Positions 3,166-34,980 of a stretch of 61,035 nucleotides of DNA are shown here, one piece after another (position 1 is the stretch's first letter; each line of letters begins with the position of its first letter). Source of the DNA: Vicinamibacteria bacterium (GTDB lineage: Bacteria; Acidobacteriota; Vicinamibacteria; Vicinamibacterales; UBA8438); assembly GCA_022821235.1 (NCBI GenBank), contig JAJEEA010000534.1, positions 1 through 61,035 on the forward strand, written 5' to 3'. The notes below the pieces were generated by a model. It had not been told where the DNA came from. It did no database searches and saw only the letters and a list, made by a program, of their open reading frames with translations. The position numbers and the translations under genes are program-made.

Positions 3166-4752
3166 CTACTGCTCCGCCGTACGCGGCACGTCGCGCAGGC
3201 GCTCCTGCAAGGTGCCGGGAATGCCGAGCCGCGTGTTGGCCCCGAGGCGTGCGAGGAGGGCGGCGGTCTCGGGCCAGCTCTGGAACTGGAACGACTGCTT
3301 CGACCCCTCGGCCATCCGGTACGCGGTGCGGCCGCGGAAGTCGCGCGCGTCGATGTCGGCGCCGTTGGCCACCAGATACTCGACGACCTCGTTCAGCCCG
3401 CGGAACGCGGCCCCGTGCAGGGCCGTGAAGTCGGCCTCGTTGACCGCGTCGATGTCCGCCCCCGCCTCGAGGAGGATGCGGACCGCCGCCTCCGCGCCGG
3501 GCGACCGGACGCCCCGCGGCTCGCGCGGGGTGTAGGTCGAGCGGCCGAGCCCCGCCGCGGCCATGAACGGCGTCGTCCCGTCGACGGTGGTCAGGTGCTG
3601 GTCGGCGCCGGCCGCGAGCAGCGCCTCGAGAATCTTGCCGCCGCTCGGGGTGTAGCTGCGTGCGCCGGAGTAGCGGGGGGCGGGGCGGTTCAGCTCGAAC
3701 GCCGCGACCCACAGCGGCGTGGCCCCCCGGAGGTCGCCGGTGCCGCAGGCGAACGGCTCGAACGCGCCCTTCCGGGGATAGCCGATGTAGTTCATGATCA
3801 TCGCCGAGGTCGTGATGCGCCCGTTCGGGTCGGCGCCGGCCGCGAGGAGGGCCTCGACGAGGCGCAGCCGACTGTCCGAGTCGAGGCCGCTCCGGCCGAA
3901 CTGGGCGTAGCGGTCGATGTCGTTGTGCCGGCGGTTCCAGTCGGTCATCCACGTGAAGATGCTGCCGGCGGCGGCGTGCAGGGCCGGCACCCCCGCCATC
4001 GTCCCGTTCGGGTCGGCGCCGCGCTCGATCAGGAAATGCGCGAACGCGTCGTGGCCGGAGACGATGGCGTAGGGCAGGGCGTGGGTGTCGTCGGTCCCCG
4101 TCTCGTCCGGGTGGACGCCGGCCGCGAGCAGCGTCCCCGCCATCGCGACGTCGCCGTTGCGGGCCGCGTAGAGCAACGGCGTGAACCCCTTGGCGGTCGA
4201 CGGGCGGGGGTCGGCGCCGGCGTCGAGGAGCGCGCGCACCACCGCGGGATGCGCCCCCGCCACCGCCCACATCAGGGCGGTGCTCCGGGTCTCGCGGGTC
4301 GCCGCGTTCGCGTCGGCCCCGTGCTCGAGCAGCGCCTCGACCACGGCCGCGCTGCCGGTCCGCGCCGCCGTCATCAGCGGCGTCAGCCCGCTCGTGCGGG
4401 CGACGTCCGCGCGGGCCCCGGCGGCCAGCAGGCGCTCGACCATCGGCAAGCTGGCGTTCTCGGCCGCCCGCTCGAGGGGCGTCACACCGTGGTCGTCGGC
4501 CGCGTTCACGTCGGCGCCGGCTCGGATGAGCCGGCCCGCGAGGTCGCCGTCGTCCCAATGGGCCGCCCACAGCAGCGCCGTCGCCCCGTCGGCGCGCGAC
4601 GCGTTCACGTCGGCGCCGGCCACGAGCAGGTCGTGCACGGCCTGCGCGTCCTGGGCCGCGACGGCGTCGACGAGCCGGACGTCCTGGCCGGAGGCCGCAC
4701 CGGCCACCAGCACCATCCCCGCAACGACGACGGCGACGGACACTCGCTGCAT
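3166..4752 (-). CDS. Secreted ankyrin-repeat protein
   Basis: The 528-aa ORF has a signal peptide (MQRVSVAVVVAGMVLVAGAASGQ). Repeated G-TPL--AA--G----V--LL--GAD-NA ankyrin units run throughout. Confidence 0.85.
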   Translation of the reverse strand: MQRVSVAVVVAGMVLVAGAASGQDVRLVDAVAAQDAQAVHDLLVAGADVNASRADGATALLWAAHWDDGDLAGRLIRAGADVNAADDHGVTPLERAAENASLPMVERLLAAGARADVARTSGLTPLMTAARTGSAAVVEALLEHGADANAATRETRSTALMWAVAGAHPAVVRALLDAGADPRPSTAKGFTPLLYAARNGDVAMAGTLLAAGVHPDETGTDDTHALPYAIVSGHDAFAHFLIERGADPNGTMAGVPALHAAAGSIFTWMTDWNRRHNDIDRYAQFGRSGLDSDSRLRLVEALLAAGADPNGRITTSAMIMNYIGYPRKGAFEPFACGTGDLRGATPLWVAAFELNRPAPRYSGARSYTPSGGKILEALLAAGADQHLTTVDGTTPFMAAAGLGRSTYTPREPRGVRSPGAEAAVRILLEAGADIDAVNEADFTALHGAAFRGLNEVVEYLVANGADIDARDFRGRTAYRMAEGSKQSFQFQSWPETAALLARLGANTRLGIPGTLQERLRDVPRTAEQ

Positions 4753-5218
4753 GGTCCTTCTCCTCGAGGCGGAACGCGCGGTGTTCGCGCCGTCCCGATC
4801 ACTAGCGGCGAATCACGGGCAGTATAGGGCAGGCTGGCGGCGAAGTCACCACGACCGGCCGGGCAGTGAAAGCCGTGCGTTCCGGACGACCGCCACGCGC
4901 CGCCACCACGCACGACGCGCCCCCGCCGGCCTCCTCCCGGCCGACATCTCCGGCGAGTCGCCGAACCGGGTCACAACGGACGCGGCCTTGAGTCGGAACC
5001 GTCCCCGCCACGCCACGGCTCGCCCGCGCGTCCCACTCGGGTGCGGTTCCCGGGATCGCCGATGCCCCGAGACTCCGTCGCGGTTGCCGCGTACGCTCGT
5101 CCCGCACAGGCGGCATAATAGGGCAGGATTTCGCATGAAGCAGGACTGGCGCGACCCGGCACGAGAGACCGCGGTACCACGGTCGCCGGAGACCGGCGCC
5201 GAGCGAAGGAGTCGAGGA

Positions 5219-6790
5219 ATGCGAGCCATCGTCGTCTGCCTGATGTCCCTGGCCGTCGCCGCCGGCGCCGCGACCGACGCGGCCGGGCAGGGCCCGAGCC
5301 TGGTCGACGCGGTGGCCGCGCAGGACGCCGACGCCGTCGAGGCGCTGCTCGCGGGCGGCGCCGACGTGAACGCGCTGCGTCCCGACGGGGCCACCGCCCT
5401 GACGTGGGCCGCGCACTGGGACGACCTCGCCCTCGCGGCGCGGCTCCTCGAGGCGGGGGCCGATCCCGATGCGGGCGACGACCACGGGGTGACGCCGCTC
5501 GAACGGGCGGCCGAGAACGCCAACCTCGCGATGGTCGAGCTGCTGCTGGACGGCGGCGCCGACGCCGGCGCGGCCCGGACGAGCGGCCTCACCCCCCTGA
5601 TGACGGCGGCGCGCACCGGCGACGCCGCCATCGTCGAGGCGCTCCTCGACAGCGGGGCGGACGTGAACGCGGTCACCGCCGAGACCCGGAGCAGCGCGCT
5701 GATGTGGGCGCTCGCGGCGCCCCATCATGACGTCGCGCGCCTGCTGCTCTCACGCGGGGCGGACCCGACGCTGGAGACCTCCGCCGGGTTCACGACGCTG
5801 ATGTTCGCGGCGCGCAACGGCGACGTGGCCATGGGCCGCGCCCTCGTCGAAGCCGGCGTCGACGTCAACGCGCCGGGGTCCGACGGGACCCAGGCCCTGC
5901 CGTTCGCGATCATCGCGGGCCAGGCCGGGTTCGCCCGGTTCCTGCTCGACGAGGGCGCCGACCCCAACCACCGGGCCGGCGGGGTCGCCGCCCTGCACGC
6001 CGCCGCCGGCGGCGTCGGCACGTGGCTGGGTGACTGGTACCGCCGCCACGGCCGTGTCGGCGGCCGGCTCCGCGCGAGCGAGAGGCTGGAGCTGGTCGAG
6101 GCCCTGCTCGCCGCCGGGGCGGACCCCAACGCGCGCATCACCTCGTGGGCGATGCTGATGTCCTACATCGGCTATCCGCGGAAGGGCGCCTTCGAGCCGT
6201 TCGCCCCCGGCACCGGCGACCTGCAGGGCGCCACCCCCCTCTGGGTGGCAGCGTTCGACCTGAACGGCGCGCCCAGCCAGGTGTTCAGCGTCATCCCCAG
6301 CTTCACCGGCAGCAGCACCGAGATCCTGACGCGGCTGCTCGAGGCCGGGGCCGACCTGACCCTGACCACCGTCGACGGGACCACGCCGCTGATGGCGGCG
6401 GCCGGCCTGGGCCGGGCCACCTACACGCCGCGCCAGCCACGCGGGGTGCGGTCGCCGACGTCGGAGGCGGCGGTGCGGCTGCTCGTGGAGGCCGGCGCCG
6501 ACGTCGACGCGACCAACTAGGCCGACTTCACCGCCCTGCACGGCGCTACCTTCCGGGGCCTGAACGAGGTCATCGAGTACCTCGTGGCCCAGGGCGCCGA
6601 CATCGACGCCCGCGACTTCCGCGGCCGCACCCCCTATCGCATGGCGGAGGGGGCCAAGCAGTCGTTCCAGTTCCAGAGCTGGCCCGAGACGGCCGAGCTC
6701 CTCGCCCGCCTCGGCGCCGACACCGACCTCGGCATTCCCGGCACCGTGCAGGAGCGCCTGCGCGACGTGCCCGTCGACGCGGTTCCCTGA
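5219..6790 (+). pseudogene. Ankyrin-repeat paralog of 3166..4752, interrupted by an in-frame TAG at 6518-6520
   Basis: An ATG at 5219 gives MRAIVVCLMSLAVAAGAATDAAGQ..., collinear with the paralog. At ...DVDATN*ADFTALHG the paralog reads ...DIDAVNEADFTALHG, so the change is GAG to TAG. ORF 6584..6790 continues in the same frame (5219 and 6584 are both 2 mod 3) with the conserved C-terminus DARDFRGRTPYRMAEGAKQSFQFQSWPETAELLARLGA. Confidence 0.7.
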
Positions 6791-27386: not shown

Positions 27387-27607
27387 CGCCTCGCTGCGCT
27401 CATCGCCGGCGAGCCGGTCCCTGCCCGTCACCACTACCAGAATAACGTCTACCCGGGGGATCCGGTTCGACAGCAGCCGAGTCCGGGCATACCATGACGC
27501 AAAGACACGGAGCACTGCCGGGTGCATGGCCATTTGTGGCCATTAGATCCGGTCCGGGCAGTAGATCCGGTCCGGGCGGTGCCGGACCCGTTCGCGGAGA
27601 CACAGAG

Positions 27608-28924
27608 ATGACACGAGACCTGACGCTGCCGACCCGGCGGCGGTTCCTGCAGACGGCCGGCGGGTTCGCGGCGGCGGCCGCGGCCGTCGGAGGACGCACG
27701 ACGGAAGCGGCGGCGGCCGCGGCCTTGGGAAGGCGCCCGACGGAAGCCGGGGCGGCCCGCGCGCAGGGGCCCGCCCTGCGGATACGCGCCGTCGACGCCT
27801 ATCCCATCTACATCAACCAGCGCTCGGACGGGCTGCTCGACGCGCCGACGTTCTCGGGCGACGACGACCCCCGGCGCTGGCGCTGGGGCGGGCCGTTCGA
27901 GCAGTTGCCGTCGGCCATCATTGCGATCGTCAAGACAGACCAGGGGGTGACCGGCTTCGGCATGGGGGCCGGGGGCAGCGCCGCCGTCGAGATCATCGAC
28001 GGGCACCTGAAGCACCTGCTGATGGGCGCCGACCCCCTGAACGTGGAGCAGCTCTGGGACCAGATGTACCAGTCGGCCATCTTCTACGGGCGGCGCGGGG
28101 TGTTCGCCATGGCCCTGAGCGCGGTGGACAACGCGCTGTGGGACATCGCGGGCAAGCACGCCGGTCGGCCCGTGCACGAGCTGCTCGGGGGCGCCTCGCG
28201 CGACCGCATTCCCCTCTACCAGACCGGGGGCGACGTGGCGGCGGGAGCCGCCGAGGGCGTGCGGAACTTCAAGCGCAGCCTGCCCGTGAACCCCCTGACC
28301 CCGCCGGACGTGCTCGACCGGGCCATCACCTCGGTGCTCGAGGCCCGCGACGTCCTGGGGCCGGACGGCAACCTCATGACCGACTGCGTCTCGCGCAACG
28401 GCACCGCCGACTGGGCGGTGGGCGTGGCGGAGCGGCTGCGGCCGGCCGGGCTCTACTTCATGGAGGAGATGCTGTCGCCCGACGACGTGTTCGGCTACGC
28501 CGAGCTGGTGCGCCGCATCGGGGGCGGCGGCCCGGGGTGGACCCGGGTCGCGTGCGGCGAGCACGAGTACACCGAGCACGGCTTCGAGGTGCTGGTGCGG
28601 CTCGGCTCGGCCGAGATCCTCCAGCCCGACATCACCTGGTGCGGCGGCACCACCGCGGGGCGGCGCATCTCGCGGCTCGTCGAGGCGGCGGGGCTCGAGA
28701 TCATCCCCCACCGCGGCGCCAGCTCCTGGGGGCTCCCCATCGCCCTCATCTCGCCGAGCTGCACCATGGCCGAGAGCTTCCCCGCAGGGTCGGCGATTCT
28801 CGACGCGATGTCGCCGCCGGTGGAGAACGGCGCGGTCGTGGCCCCCACCGAGCCGGGCTTCGGGACCACCCTGACCGAGGAGCTGGTGCTCGACCACCGG
28901 CTGGCCGGGCGGACCGTTGTATAG
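27608..28924 (+). CDS. Enolase-superfamily enzyme (mandelate racemase/muconate lactonizing type) with a twin-arginine signal
   Basis: The ATG at 27608 gives MTRDLTLPTRRRFLQTAGGFAAAAAAV, a Tat motif. The ORF has MR/MLE-like blocks: GVTGFGMG, ALSAVDNALWDIAGK, FMEEMLSPDD, ACGEHEY and LQPDITWCGG. Confidence 0.85.
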   Translation: MTRDLTLPTRRRFLQTAGGFAAAAAAVGGRTTEAAAAAALGRRPTEAGAARAQGPALRIRAVDAYPIYINQRSDGLLDAPTFSGDDDPRRWRWGGPFEQLPSAIIAIVKTDQGVTGFGMGAGGSAAVEIIDGHLKHLLMGADPLNVEQLWDQMYQSAIFYGRRGVFAMALSAVDNALWDIAGKHAGRPVHELLGGASRDRIPLYQTGGDVAAGAAEGVRNFKRSLPVNPLTPPDVLDRAITSVLEARDVLGPDGNLMTDCVSRNGTADWAVGVAERLRPAGLYFMEEMLSPDDVFGYAELVRRIGGGGPGWTRVACGEHEYTEHGFEVLVRLGSAEILQPDITWCGGTTAGRRISRLVEAAGLEIIPHRGASSWGLPIALISPSCTMAESFPAGSAILDAMSPPVENGAVVAPTEPGFGTTLTEELVLDHRLAGRTVV

Positions 28925-28965
28925 TGGGGCGTCGTTTCCGGAACACGAATGAACGGAGGCTTTCG

Positions 28966-29844
28966 ATGAGACGAATCACGGTTCTGGCCGCGGTGATCGC
29001 GATCGGCCTCGCGGCGGCCGTCAGCCGCCCCGTGGCGCAGGGCAACGTGGCCGAGATCGAGCACGTCAAGGACAACCTGTACATGATCACGGGCGGGGGC
29101 GGGAACACCGCGGCCCTCGTCACCGGCGAGGGGGTCGTGCTGGTCGACACCAAGAACCCCGGGTGGGGCGAGGCCATTCTCGACCAGGTGCGGACGGTGA
29201 CCGACGAGCCGGTCACGATGATCATCAACACCCACACCCACGGCGACCACGTGGGGAGCAACATCGACTTCGCGCAGCCGGTCGAGGTGGTGGCCCACGC
29301 CAACACCCGGACGAACATGGAGCGCATGCCCGCGTTCCAGTCCGAGAGCGGCCAGGAGTACCTGCCGGGCACGACCTACGAGGACCGGCTGACGCTGCTC
29401 GACGGGGCCAACCGGATCGACCTCTACCACTTCGGCCCGGGCCACACGAGCGGCGACTCCATCGTGGTCTTCACCGGCCTCGGCGTCGCCCACACCGGCG
29501 ACCTCTTCGCGTGGAAGGGCACGCCCTACATCGACGTGAACAACGGCGGCAGCGGGATCAACTACGGCAGGACGGTGCTCGCCGCGGCCGACGGCATCTC
29601 GGGCGTCGACACCGTGATTCCCGGGCACAGCCCGGTCATGGGCTGGGCCGACTTCCGCGAGTTCGGCGAGTTCAACCGCGACTTCCTCGCCGCCGTCGAG
29701 GCCGGCAGGGCCGAAGGCAAGTCGGCGGCGGAGACCGCGGCCTCGCTCGACCTCCCCGAGCGCTACGCGAACTACGCCATGAGCCGGGGCACCCTGACCA
29801 GCGCCGAGGACAACGCCGAGAAGATCTACGCCGAGCTCGAGTGA
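28966..29844 (+). CDS. Secreted metallo-beta-lactamase-fold hydrolase
   Basis: The ATG at 28966 follows GGAGG. The ORF has a signal peptide, the motif INTHTHGDHVGSN (HxHxDH), and later GPGHTSGDS and IPGHS. Confidence 0.9.
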   Translation: MRRITVLAAVIAIGLAAAVSRPVAQGNVAEIEHVKDNLYMITGGGGNTAALVTGEGVVLVDTKNPGWGEAILDQVRTVTDEPVTMIINTHTHGDHVGSNIDFAQPVEVVAHANTRTNMERMPAFQSESGQEYLPGTTYEDRLTLLDGANRIDLYHFGPGHTSGDSIVVFTGLGVAHTGDLFAWKGTPYIDVNNGGSGINYGRTVLAAADGISGVDTVIPGHSPVMGWADFREFGEFNRDFLAAVEAGRAEGKSAAETAASLDLPERYANYAMSRGTLTSAEDNAEKIYAELE

Positions 29845-30246: not shown

Positions 30247-31233
30247 ATGGGCACTCAGGTCGCCGTCAACCACCGCACCCGCTACGACTACGACCGGCTC
30301 GTGACCCTGGCGCCGCACGTCGTCCGGCTGCGGCCGGCGCCGCACTGCCGCACCCCCGTCACCCACTACTCGCTCCGCATCGATCCGCCCGACCACTTCC
30401 TCAACTGGCAGCAGGACCCCCACGGCAACCACCTCGCCCGCGCGGTCTTCCGCACCCCGGCCCGCCGGCTCCGCATCGAGGTCGATCTGGTCGCCGAGCT
30501 GACGGCCATCAACCCGTTCGACTTCTTCCTCGAACCGTCGGCCGAACGCTTCCCCTTCGAGTACGAGCCGTGGCTGGCGAAAGACCTGCGCCCATGCCTC
30601 GAGACGGAGCCGCCCGGTCCCGAGCTGCGCCGGTTCCTGGCCGACATCGACACGCGGGCGCGCCCCACCGTGGACTTCCTGGTGACGTTGAACGGAGACC
30701 TCGAGCGGCGCATCGACTACGAGACCCGGATGGAGCCGGGCGTCCGGACCTGCGACGACACGCTGGCGCGGGGCCGCGGCTCGTGCCGGGACAGCGCCTG
30801 GCTGCTCACCCAGATCCTGCGGAACCTGGGGCTGGCCGCGCGGTTCGTGTCGGGCTACCTGATACAGCTCGTCCCCGACGTCAGGCCCCTCGAGGGGCCG
30901 GCAGGGCCGTCCCGCGACTCCGACGAACACGAACGCTTGGCGGCGGCGCGCCGGAACGAGGAGACGGAGAGACCGCCGGGGCCGTCCCGCGACTCCGCCG
31001 AGCTCCACGCCTGGGTCGAGACGTTCCTGCCGGGCGCGGGCTGGGTGGGGCTGGACCCGACCTCGGGGCTGCTCGCGGCCGAGGGGCACCTGCCGGTGGC
31101 GGCGACGGCGGAGCCGGCGACGGCCGCGCCCGTCAGCGGCAGCGTGTCGCCGGCGGAGGTCGAGTTCGACCATGCGGTGACGGTGACCCGCCTGGACGAC
31201 GCCGCCTGCGCCGGGAAGGGCGGCCCCAGGTGA
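30247..31233 (+). CDS. Transglutaminase-like protein (Bact_transglu_N + transglutaminase core)
   Basis: The ATG at 30247 gives MGTQVAVNHRTRYDYDRLVTLAPHVVRLRP... The catalytic Cys block is GRGSCRDSAWLLTQILRNLGLAARFVSGY. The His/Asp block is LHAWVETFLPGAGWVGLDPTSG. A ~40-aa insert between these blocks carries a duplicated GPSRDS. Confidence 0.85.
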   Translation: MGTQVAVNHRTRYDYDRLVTLAPHVVRLRPAPHCRTPVTHYSLRIDPPDHFLNWQQDPHGNHLARAVFRTPARRLRIEVDLVAELTAINPFDFFLEPSAERFPFEYEPWLAKDLRPCLETEPPGPELRRFLADIDTRARPTVDFLVTLNGDLERRIDYETRMEPGVRTCDDTLARGRGSCRDSAWLLTQILRNLGLAARFVSGYLIQLVPDVRPLEGPAGPSRDSDEHERLAAARRNEETERPPGPSRDSAELHAWVETFLPGAGWVGLDPTSGLLAAEGHLPVAATAEPATAAPVSGSVSPAEVEFDHAVTVTRLDDAACAGKGGPR

Positions 31234-31307
31234 ACCGGGCCCCGGGCGACCCGCGCCACGATCGACTCCGAAACCGCGAGGGCCGGGGGCGTGCGCCCGA
31301 GGGCGGG

Positions 31308-31503
31308 GTGTCGCCACACGGCGCCGCGACCGGGATACTGCCACACGACGCCGCGGCCGGGGTGTCACCACACGACGCCGCGACCGGGATGTCGCCACAC
31401 GACGCCACCGCCGGGATGTCGCCACACGACGCCGCGGCCGGGGTGTCACCACACGACGCCGCGGCCGGGACGTCGCCACACGGCGCCACGGCCGGGACGT
31501 CGC
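31308..31503. repeat. 27-bp tandem repeat, 7 full units plus a partial eighth
   Basis: The units start at 31308, 31335, 31362, 31389, 31416, 31443 and 31470. The consensus is (G/A)TGTC(G/A)CCACACGACGCCGCGGCCGGG. The period is exactly 9 codons. Confidence 0.9.
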
Positions 31504-31516
31504 CGGAGGCGGAGCC

Positions 31517-34084
31517 TTGACGCGGCCGCCCGCCTACGCCCCCCTCGCCGGCCACTACGACGAGATGGTGGAACGGGACGGCGCCCGCCGGCCGCACTGG
31601 GAGGCGGTGACCGACGCCCTCGCCGCGGCCGGGCGGCACGAGCTCAACCGCCGGACGCAGGAGGCCCGCCGCCTCATCCGCGACAACGGCATGACGTTCC
31701 ACGTCCACCGGGGGGGCGGCACCCGGGAGCGCCCCTGGCCCCTCGACCTCATCCCGTGCGTGATCGACGGGGCCGAGTGGGCCCACCTGGAACGGGCGGT
31801 CGTCCAGCGCGCCCGGCTCTACGAGGCCGTCCTCGGCGACCTCTACGGCCCGCGGCGGCTCGTCCACGAGGGCGCCCTGCCCGCGGACTGGCTCCACGCC
31901 AACCCCGCCTTCCTGCGGGCATGCGACGGGCTGCAGCCGCCGGCGGGACGCTGGCTCCCCCTCTATGCCGCCGACCTCGTGCGGGCGCCGGACGGGAGCT
32001 GGTGGGTGCTCGGCGACCGCACCGAGGCGCCGGCGGGGCTCGCGTTCGCGCTCGAGAACCGCATCGTCGTCAACGCGGTGCTGCCGGACGTGCTGGTGGC
32101 GTCGAAGGTGCGGCGCCTCGCCGGCACGTTCGAGGCCCGCCGGATGTCGCTCGCGGCGAGCGCGCCGGGGCACCGGGAGAACCCCCGCATCGTCGTCCTG
32201 ACCCCGGGGCCGGCGTCGGAGAACTACTTCGAGCACGCGTTCCTGGCCCGCTACATGGGCTACACCCTCGTCGAGGGCGCCGACCTGACCGTCCGCGACT
32301 ACCGCGTCTACATCAAGACGCTGGGCGGCCTGCAGCCGGTCGACCTGATCCTGCGCAGCCAGCCGTCGGAGGCCTGCGATCCCCTCGAATTCGGGGGGCC
32401 GTCGCAGAGCGGCGTGCCCGGGCTCGTGGAAGCGGTGAGGCGCGGCAACGTGGCCGTCATCAACCCGCTGGGGGCCGGCGTCGCGCAGTCGCCGGCCCTG
32501 ATGGCGTTCCTCCCCGGCCTGTGCCGCCGCCTCCTCGACGCCGACCTGCTGCTGCCGTCGGTGGCCACGTGGTGGTGCGGCGACGAGGCGGCCCGCACGC
32601 ACGTGCTCGAGCGCCTCGACCGCCTCGTGATCAAGCCGGCCTATCCCAGCGTGCGGCGTGAGCGGACGTTCGGGCGGCGCCTCCCCGAGGGGCAGCGGGC
32701 CCGGCTAGCCGACCGCGTCGCGCGCCAGCCCCACCGCTACGTGGCCCAGGAGCAGGTCGCGTTGTCGACGACCCCGGTCCGGGTGGCCGGCGGCCTCTCC
32801 CCGCGCTTCCTCGTCATCCGCGTCTACGCCCTGTCGCAGGGCGACGGCTACGACGTGCTGCCGGGGGGGCTGGGCCGCGTGTCGTCGTCGACCGGCTCCC
32901 TCGACGTGACGCTGCTCGGCGGCGGCAGCAGCAAGGACGTCTGGGTGGTGGGCGAGACGGCCGAGCCCCACCGCTCGCTGATCCCGGCCAGCGTCTCCCC
33001 CATCGGCGTCAGCCGGGCCACGTTCGATCTGCCGAGCCGGGTCGCCGACAACCTCTTCTGGCTGGGCCGGTACTCGGAGCGGGTGGGGGCCGCGGTGCGG
33101 CTGCTGCGCGCGGCGATGCCGCTGCTCTCGGAGGAATCGTCTCGCCGGTCGACGGCGGCGCTGGCCGGCGCCCTGAGCTTCCTCACCGACCTCGACTACG
33201 TGCCGCAGGGAGCGGGCATCGCCAACCTCCCGCCCGTTCGCGCCCTGCAGGCCGCGGTCGGGGCCATGCTGTCCGAACCGGACCGGCGCGGCGGCCTGCG
33301 CTGGCAGGTGGAGCACCTGCGCAACGCGGCGTGGCTCTTGCGCGACCGCCTCTCGGCGGACTCGTGGCGCATCATCAGCCGCCTCGAGTCCGACCTCCGC
33401 TCGGGCCGGTCCGGCCGCCGGGAGCGCGGCGGCCTGCGCCGCACCCTGGACCAGATGGTCATGATGCTCGCGAGCTTCAGCGGCGCCGTCAGCGAGGGCA
33501 TGACGCGGGGTCACGGGTGGCGCCTGCTCGACATCGGGCGTCGGCTCGAGCGCGCGCTGCAGGTGCTCCTGCTCCTGCGGCACGGGCTGACGACGGTGGC
33601 CGAGGACGAACGGGCGCGCATCGAGCTCCTGCTCGACGCCACCGACAGCGCCATCACCTACCGGTCGCGCTATCTCACCTCGCTGCGGGCCAATCTCGTC
33701 GTCGACCTCCTGCTGCTCGACGACGCGAACCCGCGGGGCGTGGCGTTCCAGCTCGATCGGCTGAAGCAGCACGTCGCGGAGCTGCCCGACCCGCCCACGC
33801 CGGGCCGCACGTCGCCGGAATCGAAGCTCGTCACCGCGGCCGTCGCGGCCGTCCAGCTCGCCGATCTCGACGAGCTGTGCGAGGTGCGCGAGGGCCGGCG
33901 CCCCGCGCTGACGGCGCTGCTCGACCGGGTCCGGGCCGATCTGGGCGGCCTCTCGGACGCGCTGACCCGCGACTACCTCACCCACGCGGTTCCGGTCCGG
34001 CACCTGGCCCGTCCATCGTCACCCGGCGACCGCGCCGAACGCCCGGCCAACCCTCCGGGAATTCGCACCGTTCTACGAGGCTGA
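31517..34084 (+). CDS. Fused circularly-permuted ATP-grasp (type 2) + alpha-E domain protein
   Basis: The 855-aa ORF has a TTG start 7 nt after GGAGG. The N-terminal ~480 aa resemble CP-ATP-grasp proteins (YDEM...RPHW, VVLTPGPASENYFEHAFLARYMGYTLVEGADL, VINPLGAG, WWCG). The C-terminal ~330 aa resemble alpha-E (DNLFWLGRYSERVGAAVRLLRA, WRLLDIGRRLERA, ITYRSRY). Confidence 0.85.
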   Translation: MTRPPAYAPLAGHYDEMVERDGARRPHWEAVTDALAAAGRHELNRRTQEARRLIRDNGMTFHVHRGGGTRERPWPLDLIPCVIDGAEWAHLERAVVQRARLYEAVLGDLYGPRRLVHEGALPADWLHANPAFLRACDGLQPPAGRWLPLYAADLVRAPDGSWWVLGDRTEAPAGLAFALENRIVVNAVLPDVLVASKVRRLAGTFEARRMSLAASAPGHRENPRIVVLTPGPASENYFEHAFLARYMGYTLVEGADLTVRDYRVYIKTLGGLQPVDLILRSQPSEACDPLEFGGPSQSGVPGLVEAVRRGNVAVINPLGAGVAQSPALMAFLPGLCRRLLDADLLLPSVATWWCGDEAARTHVLERLDRLVIKPAYPSVRRERTFGRRLPEGQRARLADRVARQPHRYVAQEQVALSTTPVRVAGGLSPRFLVIRVYALSQGDGYDVLPGGLGRVSSSTGSLDVTLLGGGSSKDVWVVGETAEPHRSLIPASVSPIGVSRATFDLPSRVADNLFWLGRYSERVGAAVRLLRAAMPLLSEESSRRSTAALAGALSFLTDLDYVPQGAGIANLPPVRALQAAVGAMLSEPDRRGGLRWQVEHLRNAAWLLRDRLSADSWRIISRLESDLRSGRSGRRERGGLRRTLDQMVMMLASFSGAVSEGMTRGHGWRLLDIGRRLERALQVLLLLRHGLTTVAEDERARIELLLDATDSAITYRSRYLTSLRANLVVDLLLLDDANPRGVAFQLDRLKQHVAELPDPPTPGRTSPESKLVTAAVAAVQLADLDELCEVREGRRPALTALLDRVRADLGGLSDALTRDYLTHAVPVRHLARPSSPGDRAERPANPPGIRTVLRG

Positions 34085-34098
34085 CCCCTCACGAGCCG

Positions 34099-34980
34099 AT
34101 GATCACCGCACCGCCGCCCGGGCGCGAGTACCGTGTGAGGCACACCAGCCGCTACGCGTACGCCGAGCCGGTGTCGCTGTCCATGCACCAGGTGCGGCTG
34201 ACCCCGCGGGCGAGGAGAACGCAGGCCGTGCGCGACACCCGGCTCGTGATCGATCCGCCGGCCAGCGGCTCGATCACGCGCGAGGATTACTTCGGCAACG
34301 CCACCACGACCTTCACGATCCAGGGCGCGCACCGCCACCTGCGGGTGACGGCGGAGAGCCTGGTGTCGGTGTCGGCGCCCGCCCCGGCCGGCCTCGACTC
34401 GCCGTCGCTGGCCGAGACCGTCGCCCGGCTGCGGGCGCGCGACGCGGCGGACGATCTGGCCGCCGTCGAGTACCAGGTGGAGTCGCCGCTCGCCCCGCGG
34501 GGCAGCCTCTACGCCCGCTACGCCGCCCCGCTGCTCGCCCCGCGCCGGCCCCTGCTCGAGGGCGTCGACGCGCTGATGAGGACCATCCACCTGGAGTTCC
34601 GGTACGACCCCGTGGCGACCACCGTGGCGACCCCCGTCTCCGAGGTCCTGGAGGGCCGCCACGGCGTCTGCCAGGACTTCGCGCACCTGATGATCGCCTG
34701 CCTGCGGTCGCACGGCGTCGCCGCCCGCTACGTCAGCGGATACCTGGTGCCGAAGCCCGGCGTCGTCGGCGCGCAGGCGTCCCACGCGTGGGTGTCGGTC
34801 TACTGCCCGGGCGTGGGGTGGGTGGACTTCGACCCCACCAACGACGTCCGGCCGGCCGGCGGGCACATCACCCTGGGGTGGGGGCGCGACTTCGACGACG
34901 TCAGCCCCCTGAAGGGGGTGACGGTCGGCGGGGGAAACCACGACGTGACGGTCGAGGTGCTGGTCACGCCGGCGGGGTGA
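34099..34980 (+). CDS. Transglutaminase-family protein
   Basis: The ATG at 34099 gives YRVRHTSRYAYAEPVSLSMHQVRLTPR (Bact_transglu_N). The core is GRHGVCQDFAHLMIACLRSHGVAARYVSGY ... SHAWVSVYCPGVGWVDFDPTN. Confidence 0.9.
   Translation: MITAPPPGREYRVRHTSRYAYAEPVSLSMHQVRLTPRARRTQAVRDTRLVIDPPASGSITREDYFGNATTTFTIQGAHRHLRVTAESLVSVSAPAPAGLDSPSLAETVARLRARDAADDLAAVEYQVESPLAPRGSLYARYAAPLLAPRRPLLEGVDALMRTIHLEFRYDPVATTVATPVSEVLEGRHGVCQDFAHLMIACLRSHGVAARYVSGYLVPKPGVVGAQASHAWVSVYCPGVGWVDFDPTNDVRPAGGHITLGWGRDFDDVSPLKGVTVGGGNHDVTVEVLVTPAG

Follow-up and report, generated by a model that had tools for sequence, protein, structure and literature searches.

The stretch of DNA analysed here, called the window below, is 61,035 nucleotides (nt) of contig JAJEEA010000534.1 from a sponge-metagenome metagenome-assembled genome (MAG) of an uncultured sponge symbiont in the Vicinamibacterales, Acidobacteriota, with an assembly of 6.6 Mb. 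On its plus strand, a short transglutaminase gene, tg1 (30247-31233, 328 aa), is followed by a gene in which CP_ATPgrasp_2 and Alpha-E domains are fused (31517-34084, 855 aa, TTG start; the ATP-grasp gene below) and by a second small transglutaminase-like gene, tg2 (34099-34980). The gap between tg1 and the ATP-grasp gene is 283 nt. It carries a 27-bp tandem array, and an open reading frame (ORF) of 96 codons runs through it on the same strand (31230-31520). The origin of this spacer ORF and the selection acting on it are the subject of this report.

The ORF is joined to both neighbours by 4-nt overlaps. Its GTG at 31230 overlaps the TGA of tg1 at 31231-31233, forming GTGA, and its own TGA at 31518-31520 overlaps the TTG of the ATP-grasp gene at 31517, forming TTGA. 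The predicted product includes the peptide GMSPHDAAAGVSPHDAAAGTSPHGATAGTSPEAEP. A Shine-Dalgarno sequence, GGAGG (31505-31509), lies within the codons for 'PEAEP', 7 nt before the ATP-grasp TTG. An initial annotation of the window had described this arrangement: the array and its flanking genes were confirmed by Tandem Repeats Finder (TRF; 27-bp period) and by Pfam domains on both sides, the overlaps GTGA (31230-31233) and TTGA (31517-31520) and the translation of the 96 codons were as it had claimed, and the gap was corrected from 284 to 283 nt. Its statement that all six frames are open was wrong, as the tg1 stop closes the frame of that gene and two stops interrupt one minus-strand frame.

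The short tg1 is a type-B allele (defined below) with the Pfam domains Bact_transglu_N and Transglut_core. Its true start is the ATG at 30247, and the N-terminus MGTQVAVNH matches the homologues. tg2, starting with ATG 34099, was recognised by a tblastn paralogue match at 26-28% identity and is the third member of a triad. The same gene order (tg1, CP_ATPgrasp_2+Alpha-E, tg2) and the same domains are found in the triad of giant transglutaminase-DUF2126, ATP-grasp-alpha-E and small transglutaminase genes, which we take to resemble the Rv2566-Rv2567-Rv2569c type of Mycobacterium tuberculosis. Unlike in the full triad, tg1 of the window lacks the whole DUF2126 part, of which two short relics are left in the spacer.

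The spacer as a remnant of a giant transglutaminase gene

Orthologues of the ATP-grasp gene were compared in 19 genomes of the same genus and one from a neighbouring genus. The position of the gene start (LTRPPAYAPLAGHYDEM) was conserved, and the site was kept in 19 orthologues mostly as TTG, as GTG in some and as ATG in two. In seven species, tg1 had a long form, with an open frame of 1030-1371 aa that reads ...LDLRRAAPAGPSPEPAP at its tail and ends in an overlap (TTGA, GTGA or ATGA) of its stop with the ATP-grasp start. The long tg1 of genome G004 (1130 aa) contained Bact_transglu_N, Transglut_core and DUF2126, the last with 1279 bits. Nearly all distant tg1 homologues, from Planctomycetota, Pseudomonadota, Actinomycetota and other Acidobacteriota, had at least 500 further codons, indicating that the long form is ancestral. 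In type A (five species), a short tg1 ends with ...TRLGG(A/T)(P/S)PEAEP directly on TTGA. In type B (five species including that of the window), it ends with ...GKGGPR and is followed by a spacer of 142-359 nt.

When the window was compared with the long genes by blastn, three colinear pieces were found. The first comprises tg1 itself: the window up to 31206 corresponds to long-gene nt up to 885 at 87% identity. The second, relic piece 1 (31202-31306, plus strand), matches nt ~1360-1463 of six long genes at 73-78% identity and retains, in the ancestral frame, codons ~453-488 of the DUF2126 region (LHRERRLPVNLAPGDPRLER...EGG). Its translation matched residues 455-490 of the G004 protein by blastp with E=2e-9; frame 0 of the spacer reads LRREGRPQVNRAPGDPRHDRLRNREGRGRAPEGG, and the corresponding part of the long protein reads LHRERRLPVNLAPGDPRLERADDRERLRRVLEGG. 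The third, relic piece 2 (31481-31520, plus strand), is the ancestral 3' tail (...AGTSPEAEP and the stop), of which the window retains the last ~12 codons in the ancestral frame; it matches the final ~50 nt of the long genes at 80-83% identity, and the alignment (31481-31530) extends into the ATP-grasp start.

The two breaks between these pieces correspond to two deletions. At the first junction (31196-31210), where the window matches long nt up to 885 as far as 31206 and long nt from ~1360 on starting at 31202/31211, ~478 nt of the long gene (roughly codons 296-452) are gone, and the ancestral frame passes from frame 1 to frame 0. The second deletion removed ~1890 nt in frame. The last ~10 codons of tg1 (...AACAGKGGPR) are accordingly ancestral sequence read out of frame, and the TGA that ends tg1 falls, in another frame, across the ancestral codons GTG AAC (Val-Asn). 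From that GTG to the ancestral stop on the ATP-grasp TTG, the 291 nt that are left keep the ancestral frame. At the level of sequence comparison, this colinear and in-frame homology to the seven long genes, in both nucleotide and protein, showed that the spacer is what two deletions left of the C-terminal DUF2126 part of tg1. The tg1 of the window is the N-terminal third of an ancestral transglutaminase+DUF2126 gene of ~1130 aa. The overlaps at both ends of the relic ORF therefore have a historical cause: TTGA is the ancestral overlap of tg1 with the ATP-grasp gene, and GTGA is the first stop after the frameshift.

In a tree of the N-terminal part of tg1, the short alleles formed one clade separate from the long ones. 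In the ATP-grasp tree, short and long forms were interleaved, suggesting recombination at the locus. A literature search for DUF2126 found no papers.

Other changes in the same operon were also observed. One long tg1 (G013, L072) carries a low-complexity insert of ~90 aa (AERGxxTAERG...) in the middle of DUF2126 and is otherwise intact. The ATP-grasp gene is split by an insert of ~1.66 kb in G006 (L073, about 4167-5830 in flipped coordinates) and truncated in G011 (L078), and a second, fragmentary copy lies at 115-117 kb of contig C2 in G016. In some species of the genus, decay extends to the triad as a whole. The order of genes around it, with an MR_MLE enolase-superfamily gene and an MBL-fold hydrolase gene (27494-29844 in the window) ahead of tg1, the ATP-grasp gene and tg2, is kept throughout the genus and in G023, which belongs to another genus, and G009.

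The 27-bp array

The array (31297-31504, plus strand; TRF 7.7 copies, score 283) lies at the exact junction of the second deletion. It consists of seven full units, with in-register starts at 31305, 31332, 31359, 31386, 31413, 31440 and 31467, and a degenerate terminal unit at 31494-31520. TRF also found a higher-order period of 81 bp. The unit, GGGA(T/C)GTCGCC..., shares its first bases with the relic tail (GGGACGTCGCCGGAGG...), which is present in single copy and without a repeat in G003. When the degenerate terminal unit is included, we counted 8 units in the window, 6 in G008, 9 in G017, 3 in L260 (from a close TARA relative of G017), 3 in L248 and 2 in L253. Unit number thus varied from 2 to 9 between alleles of relatives. 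Arrays were confined to some type-B and type-C alleles, 6 of the 16 distinct spacer alleles, and their units had species-specific variants (GAC, GGT, ATA). These lineage-specific variants point to concerted evolution, as is ordinary for a minisatellite. With head-to-tail units, copy numbers that differ between close relatives and units homogenised within a lineage, the array behaves as a minisatellite or variable-number tandem repeat (VNTR). It is a slippage-generated minisatellite that grew in place from the relic tail.

In the window, the units were counted in an assembly of short reads that contains the 81-bp higher-order repeat. Contigs built from short reads of the source sample covered the array without differences but broke off inside it, so the number of units is less certain than their sequence. 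In the long-read MAG of G017 (L013, 1291-1315), one unit has 25 nt; contigs of three public runs add 'GA' after 1308 at full depth, which gives 27 nt and brings the frame back. The 25-nt unit is probably an assembly error or a rare variant. The frame break in G017, which at first seemed to refute a coding constraint, was set aside because the contigs of the three runs contradicted it.

No second copy of the array was found elsewhere in the 6.6-Mb assembly, nor outside the locus in 21 congeners. The one other match, weak in BLAST, lay at the end of another contig of the same assembly (C446, 1-100; L062); it belongs to an unrelated 27-bp repeat that is coding and has DDPAAGAT units, and was rejected. 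A metagenome pattern scan with GGTGAACCGGRCCCCGG returned 120 chance matches and no relevant loci. A dispersed repeat family of the MIRU (mycobacterial interspersed repetitive unit), REP (repetitive extragenic palindromic) or MITE (miniature inverted-repeat transposable element) kind was discarded, because the unit was found at this locus alone.

The nearest analogy is nevertheless with MIRU-VNTR loci (Supply et al. 1997, as summarised in PMC3184786 and PMC3635867). As in a MIRU, a tandem minisatellite of variable copy number lies between cistrons of a polycistronic operon, and its ORF overlaps the flanking stop and start with its ends. The likeness does not extend to unit size and genomic dispersal: MIRUs have units of 40-100 bp at ~40-50 loci per genome and are possibly MITE-like, whereas the array described here has 27-bp units at one locus and grew from a gene remnant.

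Tandem duplication was also seen within tg1 itself. Two internal duplications of ~25 aa (GPSRDS... and ALGKRIWGGIKSDD...STVDFLV; 30880-31010 in the window) are polymorphic among alleles, including the database entries P0002, P0008, P0015 and P0021, so that tg1 is 303, 328 or 353 aa long depending on the allele. In-frame duplication is a general tendency of the locus.

Selection on the peptide and on the reading frame

The initial annotation had proposed a repeat peptide rich in His, Asp and Pro as a candidate substrate of the ATP-grasp/alpha-E and transglutaminase enzymes, and it had stated that the absence of an ORF or repeat from orthologous operons, or substitutions without frame preference, would refute the proposal. 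Its position gives the idea some appeal: the ORF is placed for co-transcription, coupled at both ends and kept in frame, and the system is predicted to act in peptide synthesis or modification with a substrate that is not known (PMC3597751). Like the small substrate genes of RiPP-type and Pup-type systems, it is a small co-oriented ORF adjoining an ATP-grasp enzyme gene.

The related genomes did not bear this out. The ORF and the spacer were missing from the seven long-form and five type-A congeners and from G009, and type A accounted for 14 of the ~35 short tg1 alleles in the protein database; neither ORF nor repeat is present at this position in any of these species. Even among the spacer-bearing alleles, most were without the repeats.

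Substitutions likewise showed no frame preference. Among 19 repeat units, 5, 6 and 4 variable positions fell on the first, second and third codon positions. In the non-repeat leader, compared between nine alleles, the variable sites were 11/16/13 and the aggregate ratio of non-synonymous to synonymous substitution rates (dN/dS) was 1.17, against 0.16-0.22 in the ATP-grasp gene and 0.31-0.54 in the short tg1 of the same genomes. The same segment had a dN/dS of 0.2-0.6 while it was still part of the long gene. G+C by codon position was.80/.69/.84 in the ORF and.75/.52/.95 in the flanking genes, so that the ORF does not have the profile of a gene, and it had no Pfam match. These results indicated that the peptide of the relic ORF evolves neutrally and is free to drift. 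Unlike RiPP-type or Pup-type substrates, it has no conserved core or recognition sequence, evolves neutrally and is missing from most orthologous operons. With its patchy presence, its substitutions without frame preference and its origin as a DUF2126 relic, the proposed substrate peptide fails by the initial annotation's own criteria, and we consider this function very unlikely.

A weaker form of the proposal is that only the shared ...PEAEP tail is recognised. Every form, whether long tg1, type-A tg1 or relic ORF, ends with ...PE(A/P)xP at the ATP-grasp start, and an ATP-grasp/alpha-E ligase could conceivably act on such a C-terminus by analogy with RimK on ribosomal protein S6, in which case the relic would be a repeat-padded carrier of the substrate end and the first substrate candidate for the orphan ligase system. 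The tail of the ORF, however, varied among alleles (EAEP, EARP, EAKP, EAEL, GARP) while the SD-like GGAG was retained, and the ribosome-binding site accounts for what is conserved in the tail. We give the C-terminal reading very little credence.

The reading frame behaved differently from the peptide. Alleles were collected by searching the protein database with the short tg1; ~35 alleles were sorted by their tails, and DNA was obtained for 12. All 16 distinct spacer alleles started with GTGA on the tg1 stop, ended with (T/G)TGA on the ATP-grasp start and had no stop in frame 0, so that the claim of a small ORF coupled at both ends held well beyond the window. The lengths of the alleles (111, 150, 153, 177, 198, 207, 225, 252, 264, 288, 291, 300 and 369 nt) were all multiples of three, as was every gap block in their alignment. 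Many of the insertions and deletions (indels) were not multiples of the 27-bp unit (3, 6, 48, 72, 75, 111 and 147 nt). With ~12 separate indel events, the chance of this pattern under neutral indels is (1/3)^12; a conservative count of six events gives ~1e-3. Thus the two 4-nt overlaps and the frame held between them were found together in 16 of 16 distinct alleles. The absence of stops carries no information at 79% G+C, where frames +2 and -1 are also open, and the frame argument therefore rests on length modulo three and on the conserved overlaps. On this pattern in the sequences, the frame of the spacer is apparently under selection.

Related structures were seen elsewhere. In G021, a 111-nt duplication creates a 36-codon ORF running from GTGA to GTGA. 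In G016 (L075, 3323-4180), an N-terminal fragment, a DUF2126 fragment and the tail remain, and a relic ORF of at least 205 codons ends with TTGA on the start of the next gene. In G023 (L076, 3618-3935), a relic of ~100 codons from the N-terminal part of tg1 ends with ATGA on the ATP-grasp ATG. In L249 (461-1779), a 75-nt tandem duplication takes in the tg1 tail and GTGA, so that the tg1 stop occurs a second time, out of frame, within the ORF.

Constraint on spacer length might instead come from another reading of the same DNA, either a minus-strand gene (the 489-aa ORF at 31133-32602, in which the repeat is translated as CGD(V/I)PAAAS) or a programmed -1 frameshift that extends tg1 through the relic. 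The minus frame is indeed open in 15 of 16 spacers, and frame 0 is already open from 30570, well before the GTG. The minus-strand ORF, however, had no Pfam match, runs antisense to the strongly conserved ATP-grasp domain and is interrupted by stops in the spacer-bearing G010 and three others, and by inspection the sequence from the junction to the TGA offers no slippery site of the form X XXY YYZ. Both forms of this explanation are very improbable.

A possible translational relay

Taken together, a drifting peptide in a kept frame suggests that the relic may serve as a translated relay ORF, selected for its frame only, that preserves termination-reinitiation coupling or guards against Rho. We put the probability of this reading at roughly 0.6. 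We infer that the spacer is translated and that its translation affects the ATP-grasp gene. Ribosomes terminating on tg1 at GTGA would start again on the relic ORF and translate it; after stopping at TTGA they would reinitiate once more, on the weak TTG with GGAGG placed 7 nt before it. The relay would thereby restore the ancestral coupling of termination on tg1 to reinitiation on the ATP-grasp gene, and ribosome cover over the 283-nt spacer might also give protection from Rho. Selection would see only the frame and openness of the ORF, while the peptide drifts. A 27-bp array would be tolerated in such a relay, because 27 bp are nine codons and the gain or loss of a unit never breaks it.

There are precedents for the individual steps. 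Of 14 gene pairs tested, 13 showed strict termination-reinitiation coupling at their 4-nt overlaps (Huber et al. 2019, PMC6728339). In uPPE2-PPE2 of M. tuberculosis, expression of the downstream gene needs translation of the overlapping upstream ORF, and Rho polarity has been discussed as an alternative (PMC11260477). NTGA overlaps are common to those systems and to the locus described here, and so is the proposal that downstream expression needs the upstream ORF to be translated and does not need its product. Unlike those pairs, the locus described here has two overlaps chained through a pseudogene remnant, and its function is deduced from frame conservation alone.

Could the spacer instead be a pure neutral relic, namely untranslated decay junk with an ordinary intergenic VNTR, in which the frame-0 ORF and the lengths divisible by three arose by chance or shared ancestry? 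Its relic origin and its neutral substitution pattern agree with this. An RNA element was also rejected for the spacer, as there was no Rfam match, the fold was unremarkable (z = -1.0) and no promoter-like or terminator-like sites were seen; the fold and the lack of an Rfam match are what a neutral relic would give. Several observations weigh against the relay, the first three of them also on the side of neutrality. The openness of most frames at high G+C, noted above, is one. The ORF was called by gene callers in none of 13 public contigs, and the ATP-grasp TTG has its own GGAGG, so that coupling may be unneeded. How many indels count as independent hinges on the alignment and on the genealogy assumed for alleles that have evidently recombined. 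In G009, moreover, the ATP-grasp gene has no overlapping upstream ORF at all. Chance and shared ancestry, however, would have to produce 13 of 13 distinct lengths and all gap blocks in multiples of three, with many indels that are not multiples of 27. They would also have to account for the independent remnants in G016, G021 and G023, which likewise finish exactly on the overlapping stop. A purely neutral relic thus seems to us unlikely, and we favour the relay ORF.

The comparison removes an attractive lead, in that the repeat peptide is very unlikely to be the substrate sought for the ATP-grasp/alpha-E/transglutaminase system. What is new here is that the giant transglutaminase-DUF2126 gene has been truncated, repeatedly so in sponge-associated Vicinamibacterales, and that its relic has apparently been retained as a relay in which only the frame counts. 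It is a modest case, in which selection apparently acts only on the frame of a gene remnant that carries an in-frame minisatellite. The locus offers a natural experiment, where a decayed domain is apparently kept merely as an open in-frame stretch between two 4-nt overlaps. If confirmed, it would be a clear case of a gene remnant retained as a sequence-independent translational relay, and the relay would also explain why a minisatellite of nine-codon units could expand freely within it.

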